Sequence record: ON528734
From: Shigella phage ESh24
Length of the DNA stretch: 64,000 bases
Strand: one strand, 5' to 3'
Each line of letters opens with the position of its first letter. The first letter of the stretch is position 1. This document shows, in pieces, positions 25,958-54,869 of the stretch. A program made the translations under genes and the position numbers. The notes under the pieces were generated by a model. It was not told where the DNA came from, ran no database searches, and saw only the letters and a program-made list of their open reading frames with translations.

Positions 25958-29098
<3,141 letters not shown>

Positions 29099-51731: not shown

Positions 51732-52019
51732 ATGATTCTTTATGCGAAAGTATCATCCATTGAAAATGGATATAAATATGATCAAGAAGCAGCTAAAGCC
51801 TTGATTGATGATTATGGCATTTTAACATGTTTTGAAGTTGAAAAGGTTTACATTGATCGTTCATCTTCGCAAGTTAAATTAGTAAATGAAGACCGTAAAT
51901 TTAATACAGTAAATTTTGATTTCTTTATTGAAACAGAAAAAGGTCCTCTTGAATATGATATTTTCAAGAATCCTTTGGGTCTTGAATGCATCGTAAGTAT
52001 GTATCATCATAAATGGTAA
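51732..52019 (+). CDS. hypothetical protein (95 aa)
   Basis: ORF 2 nt after the previous stop. Confidence 0.6.
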   Translation: MILYAKVSSIENGYKYDQEAAKALIDDYGILTCFEVEKVYIDRSSSQVKLVNEDRKFNTVNFDFFIETEKGPLEYDIFKNPLGLECIVSMYHHKW

Positions 52020-52116
52020 ATATGCTTTAAGAATTATTTGTTATTATTAACTCATACCGCACTGATTAATACCCTCTATCATCAAGGGTTCTTGTTTGAG
52101 AGCCTTTGTTAATAAT

Positions 52117-52189
52117 TGGGAATTAGCCAAGTTGGTAAGGCATAGCACTTTGACTGCTAGATGCAAAGGTTCGAGTCCTTTATTCCCAG
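52117..52189 (+). tRNA. tRNA-Gln (anticodon UUG)
   Basis: Acceptor TGGGAAT/ATTCCCA, anticodon loop CTTTGAC, T-arm GGTTCGAGTCC. Confidence 0.8.
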
Positions 52190-52190
52190 C

Positions 52191-52277
52191 GCGAGAATGG
52201 TCAAATTGGTAAAGGCACAGCACTTAAAATGCTGCGGAATGATTTCCTTGTGGGTTCGAGTCCCACTTCTCGCACCA
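52191..52277 (+). tRNA. tRNA-Leu (anticodon UAA), type II long variable arm
   Basis: Acceptor GCGAGAA/TTCTCGC, loop CTTAAAA, encoded CCA. Confidence 0.8.
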
Positions 52278-52282
52278 AATTT

Positions 52283-52356
<74 letters not shown>

Positions 52357-52402
52357 ATTTATGACTCGTCGTGAGACGCTCAGTTCTTTATTAGGGACTG
52401 AT

Positions 52403-53011
52403 ATGCATTTTTATCTTTATAAAATAACAAATAAAATTAATAATAAAATTTATATTGGTGTGCATTCTACCGAAAATTTAGATGATGGATATATGGGTTC
52501 TGGTAAATTATTAAAAAGAGCCCAAGATAAATATGGTATAGAAAATTTTTCTAAAGAAATATTAGAGTATTTTGACGATAAAGAATCTATGCTTGAAGCC
52601 GAGAAAAATATTGTCACAGAAGAGTTTTTAAATAGACCAGATGTGTATAATTTAAAACTTGGAGGTGAAGGTGGATGGGATCATATAAATAATTATCCTA
52701 TGACAGATCAGCAACGCGAATTAATTTCATTGGGTGTTAAAAAGGCACATTCTAATGGAAAATTAAAAGGATGGTCTTCAAATGGATTAATGAAGAATGG
52801 CTTTGCTGGTAAAACTCATTCTCAAGAAGCTAAACGTAAAATAGCAAAAGCAAACGAAGCAAAAGTTTCTGTGGATGAAAGAAAAAGAAGAATAGAAATT
52901 TCTAAATTATATGATTTTTCTAAACGTGGCGAATTGTCTAAATATGCTAAGCATATTGGCGTAAGTCATACTCAAGCAAAAAGAATTCTAAATCAAATTA
53001 ACAATATATAA
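52403..53011 (+). CDS. segB: GIY-YIG homing endonuclease (SegB-like) inside the tRNA cluster
   Basis: Start set at MHFYLYKITNKINNKIYIGV (GIY-YIG core; track start 52361 abuts tRNA-Gly with no RBS); basic C-terminal DNA-binding region. Confidence 0.8.
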   Translation: MHFYLYKITNKINNKIYIGVHSTENLDDGYMGSGKLLKRAQDKYGIENFSKEILEYFDDKESMLEAEKNIVTEEFLNRPDVYNLKLGGEGGWDHINNYPMTDQQRELISLGVKKAHSNGKLKGWSSNGLMKNGFAGKTHSQEAKRKIAKANEAKVSVDERKRRIEISKLYDFSKRGELSKYAKHIGVSHTQAKRILNQINNI

Positions 53012-53017
53012 ATATTT

Positions 53018-53107
53018 GGAGGCGTGGCAGAGTGGTTTAATGCACCGGTCTTGAAAATCGGCAGTCGCTCCGGCGACTCATAGGTTCAAATCCTATCGCC
53101 TCCGCCA
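53018..53107 (+). tRNA. tRNA-Ser (anticodon UGA), type II
   Basis: Acceptor GGAGGCG/CGCCTCC, loop CTTGAAA, long variable arm, CCA. Confidence 0.8.
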
Positions 53108-53112
53108 GTTTT

Positions 53113-53188
53113 GCTGATTTAGCTTAGTAGGTAGAGCAACTCACTTGTAATGAGAAGGTCGGCGGTTCGATTCCGTCAATCAGCACCA
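53113..53188 (+). tRNA. tRNA-Thr (anticodon UGU)
   Basis: Full cloverleaf traced by hand (acceptor GCTGATT/AATCAGC, loop CTTGTAA). Confidence 0.8.
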
Positions 53189-53189
53189 A

Positions 53190-53264
53190 GGCCCTGTAGC
53201 TGGAAGGTTCAAGCAAGCGACTCATAATCGCCAGATGGTGGTTCAATTCCACCCAGGGCCACCA
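53190..53264 (+). tRNA. tRNA with CAU anticodon, Ile2 (lysidine) type
   Basis: Loop CTCATAA; anticodon arm GCGACTCATAATCGC resembles the bacterial ileX type rather than Met. Confidence 0.7.
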
Positions 53265-53276
53265 AATTATGAATTA

Positions 53277-53363
53277 GGGGAGTTATCCCGTAGAGGTAGC
53301 GGTGTGGACTGTAAATCCATTGTCATTGCGACTCGGGTGGTTCGACTCCATCACTCCCCACCA
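53277..53363 (+). tRNA. tRNA-Tyr (anticodon GUA), type II
   Basis: Acceptor GGGGAGT/ACTCCCC, loop CTGTAAA, long variable arm. Confidence 0.7.
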
Positions 53364-53367
53364 ATTT

Positions 53368-53443
53368 GGATGTGTAGCTCAATGGCAGAGCGATCGCCTG
53401 TTAAGCGATTGGTTATAGGTTCGAATCCTATCACGTCCGCCAA
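53368..53443 (+). tRNA. tRNA-Asn (anticodon GUU)
   Basis: Acceptor GGATGTG/CACGTCC, loop CTGTTAA. Confidence 0.7.
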
Positions 53444-53446
53444 ATA

Positions 53447-53522
53447 CGAGGCATAGCTCAGAAGGAAGAGCAAGGACCTTCTAAGTCCTAGGTCGTAGGT
53501 TCGATCCCTACTGCCTCGACCA
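53447..53522 (+). tRNA. tRNA-Arg (anticodon UCU)
   Basis: Full cloverleaf traced by hand; loop CTTCTAA; CCA encoded. Confidence 0.8.
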
Positions 53523-53538
53523 ATTAAGTGAGGAAAAT

Positions 53539-53889
53539 ATGAAAGGTAATGTTTATTTAGTAGTTCACGATTTAACATTTTATTTTAATCACAATGACAC
53601 TGTTATTTCTGAACGTGTAATTAATTTGCTTTATCAACACGCGGATTATGTTTATGTCGAAAACGAATATGGTCATTGGCAATTTCTCAAAAATCGTTCA
53701 TTTGGCTTAGATGGTTACGAATACTTTGAACGTAAAGACCTTTTAGATAAAATTCCGTTATCTACGCAATATCAAAATCACGAGTCTTTATATAAATGCC
53801 GTCCAATTCGAAATGCTGAATCTGCGTATGAAGCAATTGATTTATGGCGTAAACGTCGTGAACAGATTGATGCTTTAAAAGAATATTAA
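53539..53889 (+). CDS. hypothetical protein (116 aa)
   Basis: GAGGAAA RBS 6 nt upstream of the ATG. Confidence 0.6.
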   Translation: MKGNVYLVVHDLTFYFNHNDTVISERVINLLYQHADYVYVENEYGHWQFLKNRSFGLDGYEYFERKDLLDKIPLSTQYQNHESLYKCRPIRNAESAYEAIDLWRKRREQIDALKEY

Positions 53890-54230
53890 GAAACCGGGTC
53901 GCTACCGGTAAGTCGTCGGACTGATGTTCCCTGGGTAAGGAATCGTGTTAATAAATCTTTATGATTTGTTGATGCCCTCTTACATCACAGCAGAAACGGC
54001 GCACCGAATTATCGATTCGAGGAAATATCTTTGCCGTAAGCCGAGTAGCGTTTTTGACGGAACGTTCGGATATGGTCGAGATATGGCCTTTTAAAAAAAT
54101 ATTGAGTAGCGTCAACTGCTTAATAACCGGGTTCGAATCCCGGCGTTTCGTACAAACACTTGCCTTAGCAGGTGGAACCCCGACAAGGTTGCCGCAAGGC
54201 TTAGCCCCGACCGAAAGGTTGGGGCTTTTT
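53890..54230 (+). ncRNA. candidate small stable RNA region (T-arm-like hairpin and strong terminator)
   Basis: No convincing ORF; CCGGGTTCGAATCCCGG T-arm-like element at about 54124-54142; ends with a 10 bp GC stem (AGCCCCGACC-GAAA-GGTTGGGGCT) plus TTTTT at 54203-54230. Confidence 0.35.
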
Positions 54231-54305
54231 AGTTTGAATCACTCAGAGAATGCTGTTACGGATAATAAATAATTAATAACCAATAAATTATTTCAAGGAT
54301 TTTAA

Positions 54306-54869
54306 ATGAAAACCTATGCCGAATTTTTAACCGAAGCAGCAAAATTACCATCTGAAGCAGATCTTACTAAAGTATTCTTCCACTTGGACCCAAAAGACCG
54401 GGGCGATTTTCTTAAGTGGAAAGCTAAAGCTATTGAAATGTATAACATCGATAATAGTTCTTTTACGATGAGTCAAGAAAATAAATTCAATAAAGCATTT
54501 TTCAAAATTTCTAAGAAACTTGCATCAGGCGCTCAGGTTCCTAAATCTGCCTTAGCTACTCCTGAACGTGCGCCTGTTAAAATTTCTAAGAATATGTTCG
54601 ATACTAAAAAATACGTTAATGCTTTGAATAAAGCTCTTGATGCATTGGATGATGCAAAGAAGGCAGCACACGATCTTCAAGACGTATACACCGATTTTGA
54701 TCGTAAAACTAAAGGTTCTATTTCAAATAGCGAACGCAATAGTGTAAGTGTTTATTCTGATAGCCTTGATGTTCTTGGCGATGCGTATACTGAAATTAAA
54801 AATCGTATTAACACCGCATCTAAGCTAAAAGCTGCCGCAGAAGCTATAATAACTAAACTAAGCAAATAA
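54306..54869 (+). CDS. internal-protein-like protein with capsid-targeting leader (187 aa)
   Basis: N-terminus MKTYAEFLTEA is the T-even IP capsid-targeting motif; the body is a basic, Ala/Lys-rich protein. Confidence 0.7.
   Translation: MKTYAEFLTEAAKLPSEADLTKVFFHLDPKDRGDFLKWKAKAIEMYNIDNSSFTMSQENKFNKAFFKISKKLASGAQVPKSALATPERAPVKISKNMFDTKKYVNALNKALDALDDAKKAAHDLQDVYTDFDRKTKGSISNSERNSVSVYSDSLDVLGDAYTEIKNRINTASKLKAAAEAIITKLSK

Follow-up and report, generated by a model that had tools for sequence, protein, structure and literature searches.

What do the roughly 340 bp at positions 53890-54230 of Shigella phage ESh24 (sequence record ON528734) encode? A sequence-only reading of the window, the 64,000-nucleotide stretch of this genome analysed here, had marked the interval as a candidate for one stable RNA beside the tRNA genes of a T-even phage. 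Alignment supports the stable-RNA part of that claim: over the whole interval the DNA is ~95% identical to the region of phage T4 that bears rnaD and rnaC, and it is syntenic with that region, sharing its strand and its place at the distal end of the tRNA cluster. The matching T4 DNA is annotated in AF158101.6 as misc_RNA rnaD ("small, stable RNA; species 2 RNA") and rnaC ("species 1 RNA"), and the older T4 record X03016.1 has a species 2 RNA, a species 1 RNA, a stem-loop and a terminator in the same places; the two records place both ends of species 1, and the 3' end of species 2, 1 nt apart. The homologous region is kept in ~800 phage records. We conclude, with a probability of about 0.9, that the locus carries orthologues of T4 rnaD and rnaC followed by a 3' trailer and the terminator of the tRNA operon, a reading that covers identity, structure and operon context. 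The idea of a single RNA did not survive, since two RNA genes, a conserved trailer and a terminator share the interval. Both RNAs are thus already known rather than new, and the present stretch holds this phage's copies of them. The species 1 and species 2 RNAs at the end of the T4 tRNA cluster have been known since the 1970s and were sequenced decades ago.

rnaC: a tRNA-like end and a pair of complementary loops

The rnaC orthologue occupies 54012..54152 on the plus strand (the X03016 boundaries map to 54013-54151), is ~138-141 nt long and, aligned over its full length with few differences, is 97-98% identical to T4 rnaC. The T4 gene (AF158101.6 70908-71046; X03016.1 4741-4877) shares the strand, the predicted fold and the position, with rnaD preceding it and the same trailer and terminator following; a few substitutions distinguish the two copies, as does an A-rich linker that has A7 here and A5 in T4. 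A covariance model of the rnaC family, R1, scores the locus at 163.8 bits (E = 7.5e-40), its sole match in the window, and the minimum free energy of -50.2 kcal/mol lies well below that of shuffled controls (z = -4.1). Comparison across related phages, a check that the sequence-only reading had recommended, shows that 30 of the 53 rnaC pairs undergo compensatory change and that 94.3% of cells are paired, against 36-44% when the partners are slid. All of the family-wide helices, namely the acceptor-like stem, the long arm, the 10-bp hairpin and the T-arm, as well as the complementary loops, form in the window sequence, giving a predicted tRNA-like four-way junction.

An acceptor-like stem, formed by the two ends of rnaC, adjoins the T-arm. 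The 5' strand, CGAUUCG (54013..54019, plus strand), faces CGUUUCG at 54144-54150, leaving two central U.U mismatches. Among relatives one A-U pair of this stem becomes G-C, and in Tegunavirus TG1 and L030 the U.U mismatches are replaced by U-A and C-G pairs. The T-arm (54127..54143, plus strand) consists of CCGGG at 54127-54131, the loop UUCGAAU and CCCGG at 54139-54143, with the 3' strand of the acceptor-like stem directly after it. Its third pair is G-C, U-A or A-U and its second is C-G or U-A. The T-arm-like hairpin noted earlier is therefore real: GGTTCGAATCC at 54130-54140, inside the CCGGG/CCCGG stem, supplies the loop and some of the stem of this hairpin, which is a portion of the tRNA-like 3' end of rnaC. 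Exact copies of GGTTCGAATCC occur only here and in tRNA-Asn, while sites with at most one mismatch number 8 against 0.75 expected by chance. The DNA after the discriminator position reads (A)CAA, not CCA. In nine Enterobacter phage records, the CIP9 lineage, the T-loop is the non-canonical UGCAUGC, so strict tRNA mimicry is not universal in the family.

The remainder of the molecule departs further from tRNA. At the position of a D-arm, a long irregular arm of ~25 bp (54020..54090, plus strand) carries the apical 6-nt loop L1, UUGACG (54054..54059, plus strand). Its helices, numbered 2-4, show compensatory change at 18 of 25 pairs, and in VPA32, fGh-Ecl01, L032, L056 and L057 the stems of the arm are wholly rewritten with L1 retained. 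A single-stranded, A-rich linker, UUAAAAAAA (54091..54099, plus strand), follows, with A7 here against A5 in most relatives and an invariant AAAAAU. Next comes a 10-bp hairpin (54100..54125, plus strand), the "pot. stem-loop structure" of X03016.1, in which 7 of 10 pairs are compensatory and whose 6-nt loop L2 is CGUCAA (54110-54115). Across genera, the invariant parts of rnaC are the loops, the linker and the unpaired motifs CGAGGA, GGCCUU, AAAAAU and UAAC.

L1 and L2 are complementary over 6 bp, and this complementarity is perfect in all 27 rnaC homologues (27/27). It is preserved through change: the loops are UUGAUG/CAUCAA in TG1 and L030 and UUGGCG/CGCCAA in the Klebsiella phages L056 and L057, so that two separate lineages show one compensatory event each, at different positions. 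The best explanation of this sequence pattern is a kissing interaction of L1 with L2, which would form inside a single molecule or join two molecules. With arms of ~25 bp and 10 bp, an intramolecular kiss is geometrically demanding.

How does this architecture compare with that of known tRNA-like domains? Like tRNA and the tRNA-like domains of tmRNA, YrlA, the gammaherpesvirus vtRNAs and mascRNA, rnaC has a 7-position end stem and a 5-bp T-arm. Its T-arm loop, GGUUCGAAUCC, and the one unpaired, discriminator-like base after the end stem are likewise tRNA-like, and model R1 weakly detects true tRNAs (19-25 bits). Unlike tRNA, rnaC lacks an anticodon arm, a D-arm and an encoded CCA, it has two U.U mismatches in the acceptor-like stem, and the body is replaced by the ~25-bp arm and the 10-bp hairpin, joined by the putative kissing helix. 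ARAGORN finds no tmRNA, the sole Rfam tmRNA_permuted match (13.6 bits) lies in the tRNA region, and, unlike in tmRNA, the acceptor-like stem of rnaC has no G3.U70. Matches to the YrlA family (RF02553) reach 19-25 bits, against a gathering score of 69, and fall on true tRNAs, with none on rnaC. The termini of YrlA form a Ro-binding stem, not an acceptor stem, whereas those of rnaC form the acceptor-like stem.

Protein and tRNA readings of the same DNA

Could the region instead encode small proteins? The ORF list for the stretch holds only a 49-aa ORF with a GTG start (53945-54094, plus strand), a 72-aa ORF with a TTG start (54054-54272, plus strand) and a 55-aa ORF with a TTG start (53948-54115, minus strand). 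That the two plus-strand ORFs are genes is extremely improbable, even though both match PHROGs families (phrog_24262, E = 2e-36, and phrog_28391, E = 9e-35) and "hypothetical protein" features overlap the region in many phage GenBank records. The 72-aa frame is stopped or frameshifted in T4, T2, RB69, VR25, CIP9, COW86c, PetCM3-4, TG1, VPA32 and fGh-Ecl01, the frameshifts arising because the length of the linker, including its A-run, varies among relatives. Interruptions of the 49-aa frame occur in T4, VPA32 and fGh-Ecl01, and the plus-strand frames are broken in the Karamvirus homologues as well. Neither GTG nor TTG start is preceded by a ribosome-binding site, a Pfam search with the 49-aa and 72-aa ORFs gave no match, and substitutions in rnaC and rnaD track base-pairing rather than codon positions. 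The earlier judgement that the interval contains no credible ORF thus agrees with the comparative data, in which no ORF is conserved across it. The two PHROG families are artefacts of automatic ORF calling on near-identical genomes.

A second reading, that the locus is an unusual or degenerate tRNA gene, stems from ARAGORN, which draws a 97-nt "tRNA-Phe, anticodon AAA" at 54057-54153 that would have to be a pseudogene or a long-armed tRNA. The call recurs in the relatives L003 and L027, its T-arm is canonical, a 7-bp stem, ACGGAAC/GTTTCGT, can be drawn for it, and some GenBank records name this spot tRNA-Lys, tRNA-Asn or tRNA-OTHER. We nevertheless regard this reading as highly improbable, and the ARAGORN model itself is ruled out by covariation. 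Pair 4 of its acceptor stem changes in the wrong way, being G.U in E. coli phages and A.C, U.C or C.C elsewhere, while the same 5' column covaries instead with its partner in the long arm (UG, UA, GC, AU); the real partner of the 3' strand is the 5' end of rnaC itself. The supposed anticodon falls in the length-variable A-run. With the Rfam tRNA model (RF00005) there is no match over 53886-54232 at E <= 10, against 34-74 bits for the nine real tRNAs, and rnaC does not form the tRNA cloverleaf of D-arm, 5-bp anticodon stem with 7-nt loop, T-arm and acceptor stem. Nor is the locus a degraded tRNA or ORF remnant without conservation, given that compensatory substitutions keep its structure across many Tevenvirinae genera.

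rnaD: a conserved core and a hypervariable tip

The rnaD orthologue, ~120 nt long, spans ~53886..54005 on the plus strand, as placed by alignment to T4 rnaD (AF158101.6 71053-71171; X03016.1 4615-4734). It is ~92% identical to the T4 sequence and 100% identical to that of phage OES_C-2, and the rnaD-family covariance model R2 gives it 145.8 bits. Its predicted fold has z = -2.2 relative to shuffled controls, and 13 of 23 pairs are compensatory. A 5' hairpin (53893-53909, plus strand) exposes the invariant loop GUCGCUA. It is followed on the same strand by a long hairpin whose basal stem pairs 53912-53918 with 53997-54004 and which has a conserved internal-loop region above. The 5' hairpin, the basal stem and the internal-loop region are the same in T4. 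The distal hairpin (~53933-53985, plus strand) differs from that of T4 and is hypervariable, with three classes among relatives.

In T4, rnaD begins 2 nt past tRNA-Arg. Here the two are separated by a 116-aa ORF (53539..53889, plus strand; phrog_3355, E = 8e-55) that T4 does not have and whose stop codon abuts the conserved rnaD start. T2 and RB69 share the arrangement found here, the counterparts of the ORF being T2_136 and RB69ORF150c. The homology of rnaD still holds, because a start directly after tRNA-Arg is a trait of the T4 layout and not of the RNA. With 351 nt of ORF between rnaD and tRNA-Arg, the 5' end of rnaD would have to be formed otherwise than in T4.

Two further features of rnaD were considered and rejected. 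In X03016.1 species 2 ends in ...CACCA, which would make rnaD tRNA-like with a CCA end. However, this phage does not encode the final A: ...CACC is followed by G here and by A in T4, so this rnaD has no encoded CCA-like end, and in several phages the CC is also CA. The second candidate was pairing between 5 nt of the rnaD loop (CGCUA) and UAGCG, present in two copies in rnaC. This complementarity is at chance level, the UAGCG bases lie in rnaC stems, and pairing between the two RNAs is disfavoured also by genera that have one RNA without the other.

An invariant trailer and a terminator

The conserved 3' trailer, or 3' external transcribed spacer, runs from 54153 to 54202 on the plus strand, with a hairpin at 54157-54174 and the invariant segment AACACUUGCC(U)UAGCAGGUGGAACCCCGACAAGG. 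It is nearly invariant: among 20 distinct sequences from four genera, ~35 nt do not vary at all. Some of these sequences come from phages without rnaC, in which the trailer directly follows rnaD. Trailer and terminator together have a minimum free energy of -36.5 kcal/mol (z = -3.9).

The strong terminator recognised in the sequence-only reading was recovered by a terminator scan at 54203..54231 on the plus strand, ~50 nt past the mature end of rnaC. Its 10-bp stem (54203-54226; seven G-C pairs) is capped by a GAAA loop and followed by U5 (TTTTT at 54227-54231). X03016.1 labels the site "pot. terminator", and in Dhakavirus the stem shows a compensatory flip from C-G to G-C. This terminator closes the tRNA/stable-RNA transcription unit.

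Transcription and processing

How might the two RNAs be made? The tRNA genes lie upstream on the same plus strand (52117-53522) and end in the subcluster Ser-Thr-Met-Tyr-Asn-Arg (53018..53522; called by ARAGORN, with Rfam tRNA scores of 34-74 bits). Just 5' of this second subcluster is an exact match on the plus strand to the T4 late-promoter consensus, TATAAATA (53007..53014). It is a candidate promoter of the transcript that carries rnaD and rnaC in this phage, both RNAs being of the late class in T4 (PMC9697503). We propose that one transcript, probably started at upstream promoters of this kind, carries rnaD and rnaC along with the 116-aa ORF and the tRNAs that precede it, and that the host tRNA-maturation machinery then excises them, as T4 and the anatomy of the locus suggest.

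The 7-position acceptor-like stem and the 5-bp T-arm of rnaC would together present a 12-bp minihelix to RNase P. A 12-bp acceptor/T-arm minihelix is the element that RNase P recognises, so that a cut at 54012/54013 would give both the 5' end of rnaC and a 3' precursor of rnaD. The spacer between the two genes, GAATTA (54006..54011, plus strand; bounded by alignment to the T4 annotations), lies just 5' of this expected cut. In Karamvirus, COW86c and Moonvirus, rnaC exactly occupies the gap between two tRNAs (Trp or Met, then Gly), and rnaD-like elements begin immediately past a tRNA 3' end; since rnaC is thus embedded among tRNAs, excision of the RNase P type is to be expected. Base-paired, stable ends would then shield both RNAs from exonucleases.

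Distribution and annotation

The two RNAs are conserved to different degrees: identity reaches 95% or more in 683 of 748 records for rnaC, but in only 51 of 736 for rnaD. By blastn, rnaC is 95-99% identical to 676 records, several of which annotate it as rnaC. Scans of IMG/VR with exact patterns found 12 loci for rnaD and 14 for rnaC, all in close relatives. Degenerate rnaC DNA patterns returned 33 loci from IMG/VR, of which only the known T4-like ones scored with R1, and 13 loci from metagenomes, made up of 11 near-identical T4-like copies and 2 chance matches.

A covariance-model search, also suggested by the sequence-only reading, was run with Rfam 15. At E <= 10 over 51800-54500 it returned the real tRNAs and noise, with no family matched by rnaC, rnaD or the trailer, and on a Karamvirus tRNA array the outcome was likewise tRNAs and noise. 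Because Rfam 15 gives no match, covariance-model scans miss both. In most GenBank genomes of T4-like phages rnaD and rnaC are unannotated or mislabelled, as hypothetical proteins or odd tRNAs, and this mislabelling is the source of two phantom protein families in PHROGs.

Possible functions

What might these RNAs do? Papers from 2010, 2022 and 2025 call the function of both unknown, and our search of the literature on T4 stable and tRNA-like RNAs and on T4 RIL-seq found nothing on function. In T4 they are expressed: RNAC was seen by northern blot in infected cells, expression was followed by northern blot and RNA-seq, and by RNA-seq RNAC and RNAD are late RNAs (PMC9697503).

We propose, tentatively, that rnaC may mimic tRNA, binding, titrating or redirecting a factor of the host or the phage that recognises the tRNA acceptor/T-arm. 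Possible targets of such a decoy would be a host nuclease of tRNA-targeting defence, a tRNA-processing factor or a translation factor. In this view rnaD and the trailer would form structured modules of their own, with accessory roles that depend on the host. The fuller scheme, in which rnaC is a dedicated tRNA mimic whose body is locked by the 6-bp kiss and which acts in trans as decoy or adaptor, with rnaD and the trailer as further functional RNAs, seems unlikely as a whole. If true, this scheme would supply a mechanism for RNAs that have gone without an assigned role for ~50 years, and it would define RNA families, absent from Rfam, across at least eight Tevenvirinae genera.

It is also conceivable, if rather doubtful, that the structures act in cis only, as processing punctuation, as protection of the 3' end or as an attenuator of downstream read-through, and that the stable RNAs are by-products. 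T4 deletions of the entire tRNA region are viable on laboratory hosts, which counts for such a role and against the function proposed above for rnaC. The elements always lie inside or at the end of tRNA operons, abutting tRNA ends; rnaC is cleanly missing in Dhakavirus, where the locus is otherwise unchanged; and, as we read the sequence, GUUGGGG could pair with the trailer segment CCCCGAC (54178-54184) in competition with the 5' arm of the terminator. A processing handle, however, requires only the minihelix, yet loops, linker and unpaired motifs are held invariant across genera and the putative kissing loops are maintained via compensatory change. In addition, rnaC is far more conserved than its neighbours, and during adaptation of a T4-like phage to a new host rnaD acquired a convergent SNP (PMC12685909).

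Analogous to 3'ETS-leuZ of the E. coli glyW-cysT-leuZ operon, the segment at 54153-54231 is a terminator-bearing 3' spacer of a tRNA operon that is unexpectedly conserved; the two share no sequence similarity, and the likeness is one of position only. By that analogy the modules, especially the terminator-bearing trailer and rnaD, might be base-pairing regulators or sponges of host small RNAs, which we judge distinctly unlikely. The ~35 nt held invariant in four genera would fit such a role, the precedent of 3'ETS-leuZ is among the references of PMC10884466, and RNAC and RNAD have been termed "small regulatory RNAs" (PMC9697503). On the other side, the conserved trailer sequence is mostly paired in the predicted fold, no target has been identified, and a review of 2010 knew no characterised trans-acting regulatory RNA of T4 (PMC3014915). 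A blastn search of the region against 5,426 complete E. coli genomes, which short seed matches would escape, returned no match, and therefore neither a homologue in the host or its prophages nor any long complementarity.

The comparative structures suggest mutations that can be tested, in the tRNA-like junction of rnaC with its kissing-loop helix, in the core and hypervariable tip of rnaD and in the invariant trailer. Presence and absence across genera also provide a natural comparison, Dhakavirus being without rnaC and Karamvirus having the two RNAs apart rather than adjacent.

Finally, we note that the next ORF on the plus strand encodes 187 aa (54306..54869 in the ORF list; phrog_2280, function unknown). 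The sequence-only reading named it the "IP gene", and its N-terminus, MKTYAEFLTE, may resemble the capsid-targeting sequence of the T4 internal proteins.

Identity of the two RNA genes

What lies between the tRNA cluster of the ESh24 phage and the next credible ORF, which starts at 54306? Nine tRNA genes occupy 52117-53522 on the + strand (ARAGORN, with Rfam tRNA matches), followed on their 3' side by a 116-aa ORF at 53539-53889. A blastn query spanning 53880-54300 matched 805 of the 50,697 phage records searched, almost all of them T4-like, with Escherichia, Shigella, Yersinia and Salmonella as hosts; in T4 (AF158101.6) and RB5 the matching DNA is labelled rnaC and rnaD. The T4 record lists rnaD (71053-71171; misc_RNA 'small, stable RNA; species 2 RNA') and rnaC (70908-71046; misc_RNA 'species 1 RNA') directly after tRNA-Arg, and pairwise alignment with it places rnaD at 53886-54005 and rnaC at 54012-54152, both on the tRNA strand. 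An older T4 record, X03016.1, whose species 1 boundaries correspond to 54013-54151, describes a species 2 RNA of 120 nt, a species 1 RNA of 137 nt (CGAUUCG...CGUUUCGU), an internal stem-loop and a 'pot. terminator'. By sequence, position and structure, the two elements belong to the T4 rnaC and rnaD families. On the ARAGORN and Rfam results it is no tRNA, tmRNA or YrlA, and no homologue was found in E. coli genomes. The window itself is mosaic Tequatrovirus DNA, with its closest records only ~95-96% identical over 5 kb.

The sequence-only reading had proposed a candidate stable RNA here, citing a T-arm-like hairpin, a strong terminator and the lack of a credible ORF. The observation is real and the interpretation right: GGTTCGAATCC lies at 54130-54140 within a CCGGG/CCCGG stem (54127-54143), its only other exact match in the whole window being tRNA-Asn; a terminator-like hairpin at 54203-54226, of 10 bp including 7 G-C pairs, is followed by T5; and ORFs in the gap begin only with GTG or TTG. 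Since both RNAs are annotated in T4, they were already known, and the remaining value lies in their comparative structure, family range and annotation artefacts. An omics study (PMC9697503, 2022) classed RNAC and RNAD as late RNAs 'of yet unknown functions', validated the late class by northern blot and described an RNAC riboprobe. Experimental evolution (PMC12685909, 2025) found one convergent SNP in rnaD as a T4-like phage adapted to host ECOR34, again stating its function as unknown; further literature searches found nothing on the function of either RNA.

The locus differs from that of T4 in several respects. The 116-aa ORF (phrog_3355, no assigned function), whose stop codon directly adjoins the conserved beginning of rnaD, separates tRNA-Arg from rnaD, as in T2 (T2_136) and RB69 (ORF150c), but is absent in T4. 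The tRNA set has Met, Tyr and Asn and lacks Pro and Ile. A SegB-like GIY-YIG/NUMOD3 homing-endonuclease ORF (phrog_314; 52361-53011) sits between tRNA-Gly and tRNA-Ser, whereas T4 segB lies between tRNA-Ile and tRNA-Arg. Far from the cluster, a T-loop-like GGTTCAAATCC (one mismatch) occurs at 26865-26875; it is probably a chance match, since neither ARAGORN nor our rnaC covariance model found anything there.

Coding and tRNA annotations

We rejected the 72-aa (54054-54272) and 49-aa (53945-54094) ORFs as genes, their frames being interrupted in T4, T2, RB69, VR25 and more distant homologues. The 72-aa frame is shifted in most relatives because the A-rich linker of rnaC differs in length (A7 in the window, A5 in most relatives). 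Both ORFs match PHROGs families (phrog_24262 and phrog_28391) and neither has a Pfam match; these families must have arisen from automated ORF prediction in nearly identical genomes, and appear to be phantom protein families born of mis-annotated RNA genes. Many GenBank records carry a 'hypothetical protein' label over the rnaD/rnaC region, and some label the rnaC spot tRNA-Lys, tRNA-Asn or tRNA-OTHER. ARAGORN calls a 'tRNA-Phe(aaa)' at 54057-54153 and repeats the call at two Karamvirus-type loci (L003 1551-1646 and L027 7816-7911), each time taking the 3' two-thirds of rnaC for a tRNA of 96-97 nt. We rejected this candidate as well: the Rfam tRNA model does not match it, and its acceptor pairing changes the wrong way in homologues, from G.U to A.C, U.C and C.C.

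Structure and range of rnaC

Of 748 records, 683 have an rnaC of 95% identity or more. Diverged copies were fetched from Mosigvirus RB69, Gaprivervirus VR25, Kanagawavirus CIP9, Moonvirus, Tegunavirus TG1, Karamvirus (Pet-CM3-4, VPA32, fGh-Ecl01 and myPSH1140), Erwinia phage COW86c, and Klebsiella phages kv_tblp8 and Clarke_MM3; the gene also occurs in Kosakonia, Serratia and other Erwinia phages. In Karamvirus, COW86c and Moonvirus it exactly fills the space separating two tRNA genes (Trp or Met, then Gly).

RNAalifold and direct pair counts yielded a single consistent fold. Using a covariance model built from 15 sequences, we aligned 27 copies; 30 of 53 pairs show compensatory changes, and 94.3% of alignment cells are paired against 36-44% with the partners slid, figures that lean somewhat towards structure because the alignment is fitted to the model. 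MAFFT alignments give the same picture. In the modelled fold, rnaC forms a tRNA-like four-way junction, its body being unlike that of a tRNA. It comprises an acceptor-like stem (54013-54019/54144-54150), whose two central U.U mismatches are replaced by U-A and C-G in TG1; a long arm (54020-54090); the single-stranded A-rich linker; a 10-bp hairpin (54100-54125); and a T-arm (54127-54143) that runs straight into the 3' strand of the acceptor-like stem, with one unpaired base after it. In the CIP9 lineage (L008 1505-1654) the T-loop is UGCAUGC instead of UUCGAAU on an intact T-stem, and this loop is fixed in nine Enterobacter phage records whose whole rnaC is 99-100% identical.

The long arm ends in the loop UUGACG (54054-54059), and the reverse complement of exactly this sequence forms the loop of the 10-bp hairpin (CGUCAA, 54110-54115). 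Of the 27 sequences, 23 keep both loops unchanged, including those of phages with completely rewritten stems. The variants, UUGAUG/CAUCAA in TG1 and locus L030 and UUGGCG/CGCCAA in both Klebsiella phages, are all compensatory, representing two events at different positions, and full complementarity is kept in 27/27. This covariation is strong evidence for a predicted loop-loop helix, either within one molecule or between two; an intramolecular kiss would need a bend, since the arms are unequal in length. A literature search that stopped short of the 1970s-80s papers turned up no account of this interaction, and we make no claim that it is new. A 9-mer, GAGTAGCGT, occurs twice in rnaC (54043-54051 and 54104-54112), each copy leading into one kissing hairpin; the repeat hints at internal duplication, and is not retained in those homologues that have diverged furthest.

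rnaD as a separate module

rnaD varies much more than rnaC: no more than 51 of 736 records reach 95% identity. The first 45 nt and the last 25 nt hardly vary; between them lies a hairpin that folds in every case and falls into three or more sequence classes unrelated to one another (T4-like, T2-like and Dhaka/Gapriver-like). The sequence-only reading had named compensatory change across related phages as a check, and rnaD, like rnaC, bears it out: 13 of 23 pairs are compensatory in a model-fitted alignment, among them one in the basal stem that flips from G-C to C-G.

Diverged rnaD-like elements were detected by the rnaD covariance model at 24-33 bits (L003 507-612, L005 531-635, L007 325-429, L014 322-426, L027 6803-6907, L004 1112-1216 and L008 1140-1272). 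Unannotated in their records, they lie directly after tRNA-Asn in Karamvirus and COW86c and after tRNA-His in Moonvirus and Kanagawavirus, and do not adjoin rnaC. Conversely, rnaC is cleanly absent in Dhakavirus (JS10, dhabil and several IMG/VR contigs), where rnaD abuts the trailer, the conserved stretch that otherwise follows rnaC; the junction (L010 1497-1706 and L012 1497-1707; also L016, L023, L024 and L026) reads ...GCGCAC(C/A)GAA, then CACTTGCC.... Given these separate sites and this loss, rnaD and rnaC are independent modules, adjacent by happenstance in T4-type phages.

The Karamvirus and Moonvirus tRNA arrays hold further conserved stretches of 100-160 nt that are neither tRNA nor CDS (L003 613-750, 827-984 and 1144-1249, with homologues in L004, L005, L007, L008, L014, L027 and L032). 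Their z-scores for folding, -1 to -2.6, do not stand out; in Moon and CIP9 the 827-984 element is also found just before the tRNA-Met that lies upstream of rnaC.

Proposed biogenesis and possible role

Homology and anatomy establish that the tRNA strand carries two genes for stable RNAs, which have conserved base-paired ends and are closed off by a terminator. We propose that rnaD and rnaC would be co-transcribed with the tRNAs and the 116-aa ORF, the late-promoter consensus TATAAATA lying at 53007-53014. An RNase P-type cut at 54012/54013 could be directed by the 12-bp acceptor/T-arm minihelix, and exonucleases may trim the ends back to stable stems. Because an ORF and not a tRNA precedes rnaD here, its 5' end would, differently from T4, be made by an endonuclease cut.

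What might rnaC do? That its loops, linker and unpaired motifs do not vary points to a specific partner, and we tentatively favour tRNA mimicry, as a decoy or adaptor in trans, at a probability of about 0.3. Strict mimicry is weakened by the two U.U mismatches, by the non-canonical T-loop of the Enterobacter phages and by the lack of an encoded CCA, the discriminator position being followed by CAA in every homologue. It is doubtful that the RNAs have a purely cis role or are by-products, and base-pairing or sponge activity seems improbable; the rest of the probability we leave unassigned.

Trailer, terminator and late-promoter motifs

The 50-nt trailer (54153-54202) is almost invariant among 20 distinct sequences drawn from four genera (Tequatro-, Mosig-, Gapriver- and Dhakavirus). 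Its conservation holds in phages without rnaC and exceeds that of the rnaD middle, and trailer plus terminator fold with z = -3.9. Together with the terminator (to 54231), the trailer may constitute a third RNA, a 3' ETS that bears the terminator, or else serve as a signal for processing or attenuation. An E. coli tRNA operon has a 3' external transcribed spacer that acts as a small-RNA sponge, and the likeness to it is one of position only. Within the trailer, CCCCGAC (54178-54184) is a second occurrence of the terminator's 5'-arm sequence.

In addition to 53007-53014, exact matches to TATAAATA occur on the + strand at 52684-52691 and 51771-51778, one of the three directly preceding tRNA-Ser; over the whole window the motif is enriched (22 found against ~10 expected). 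In many relatives it immediately follows the terminator U-run. SH-1 and many other relatives carry an insert of ~570-640 bp after the terminator, at whose far end the terminator hairpin occurs again (in SH-1, L002 2766-2860 and 3376-3418); this arrangement suggests that a gene cassette was inserted and the terminator duplicated with it.
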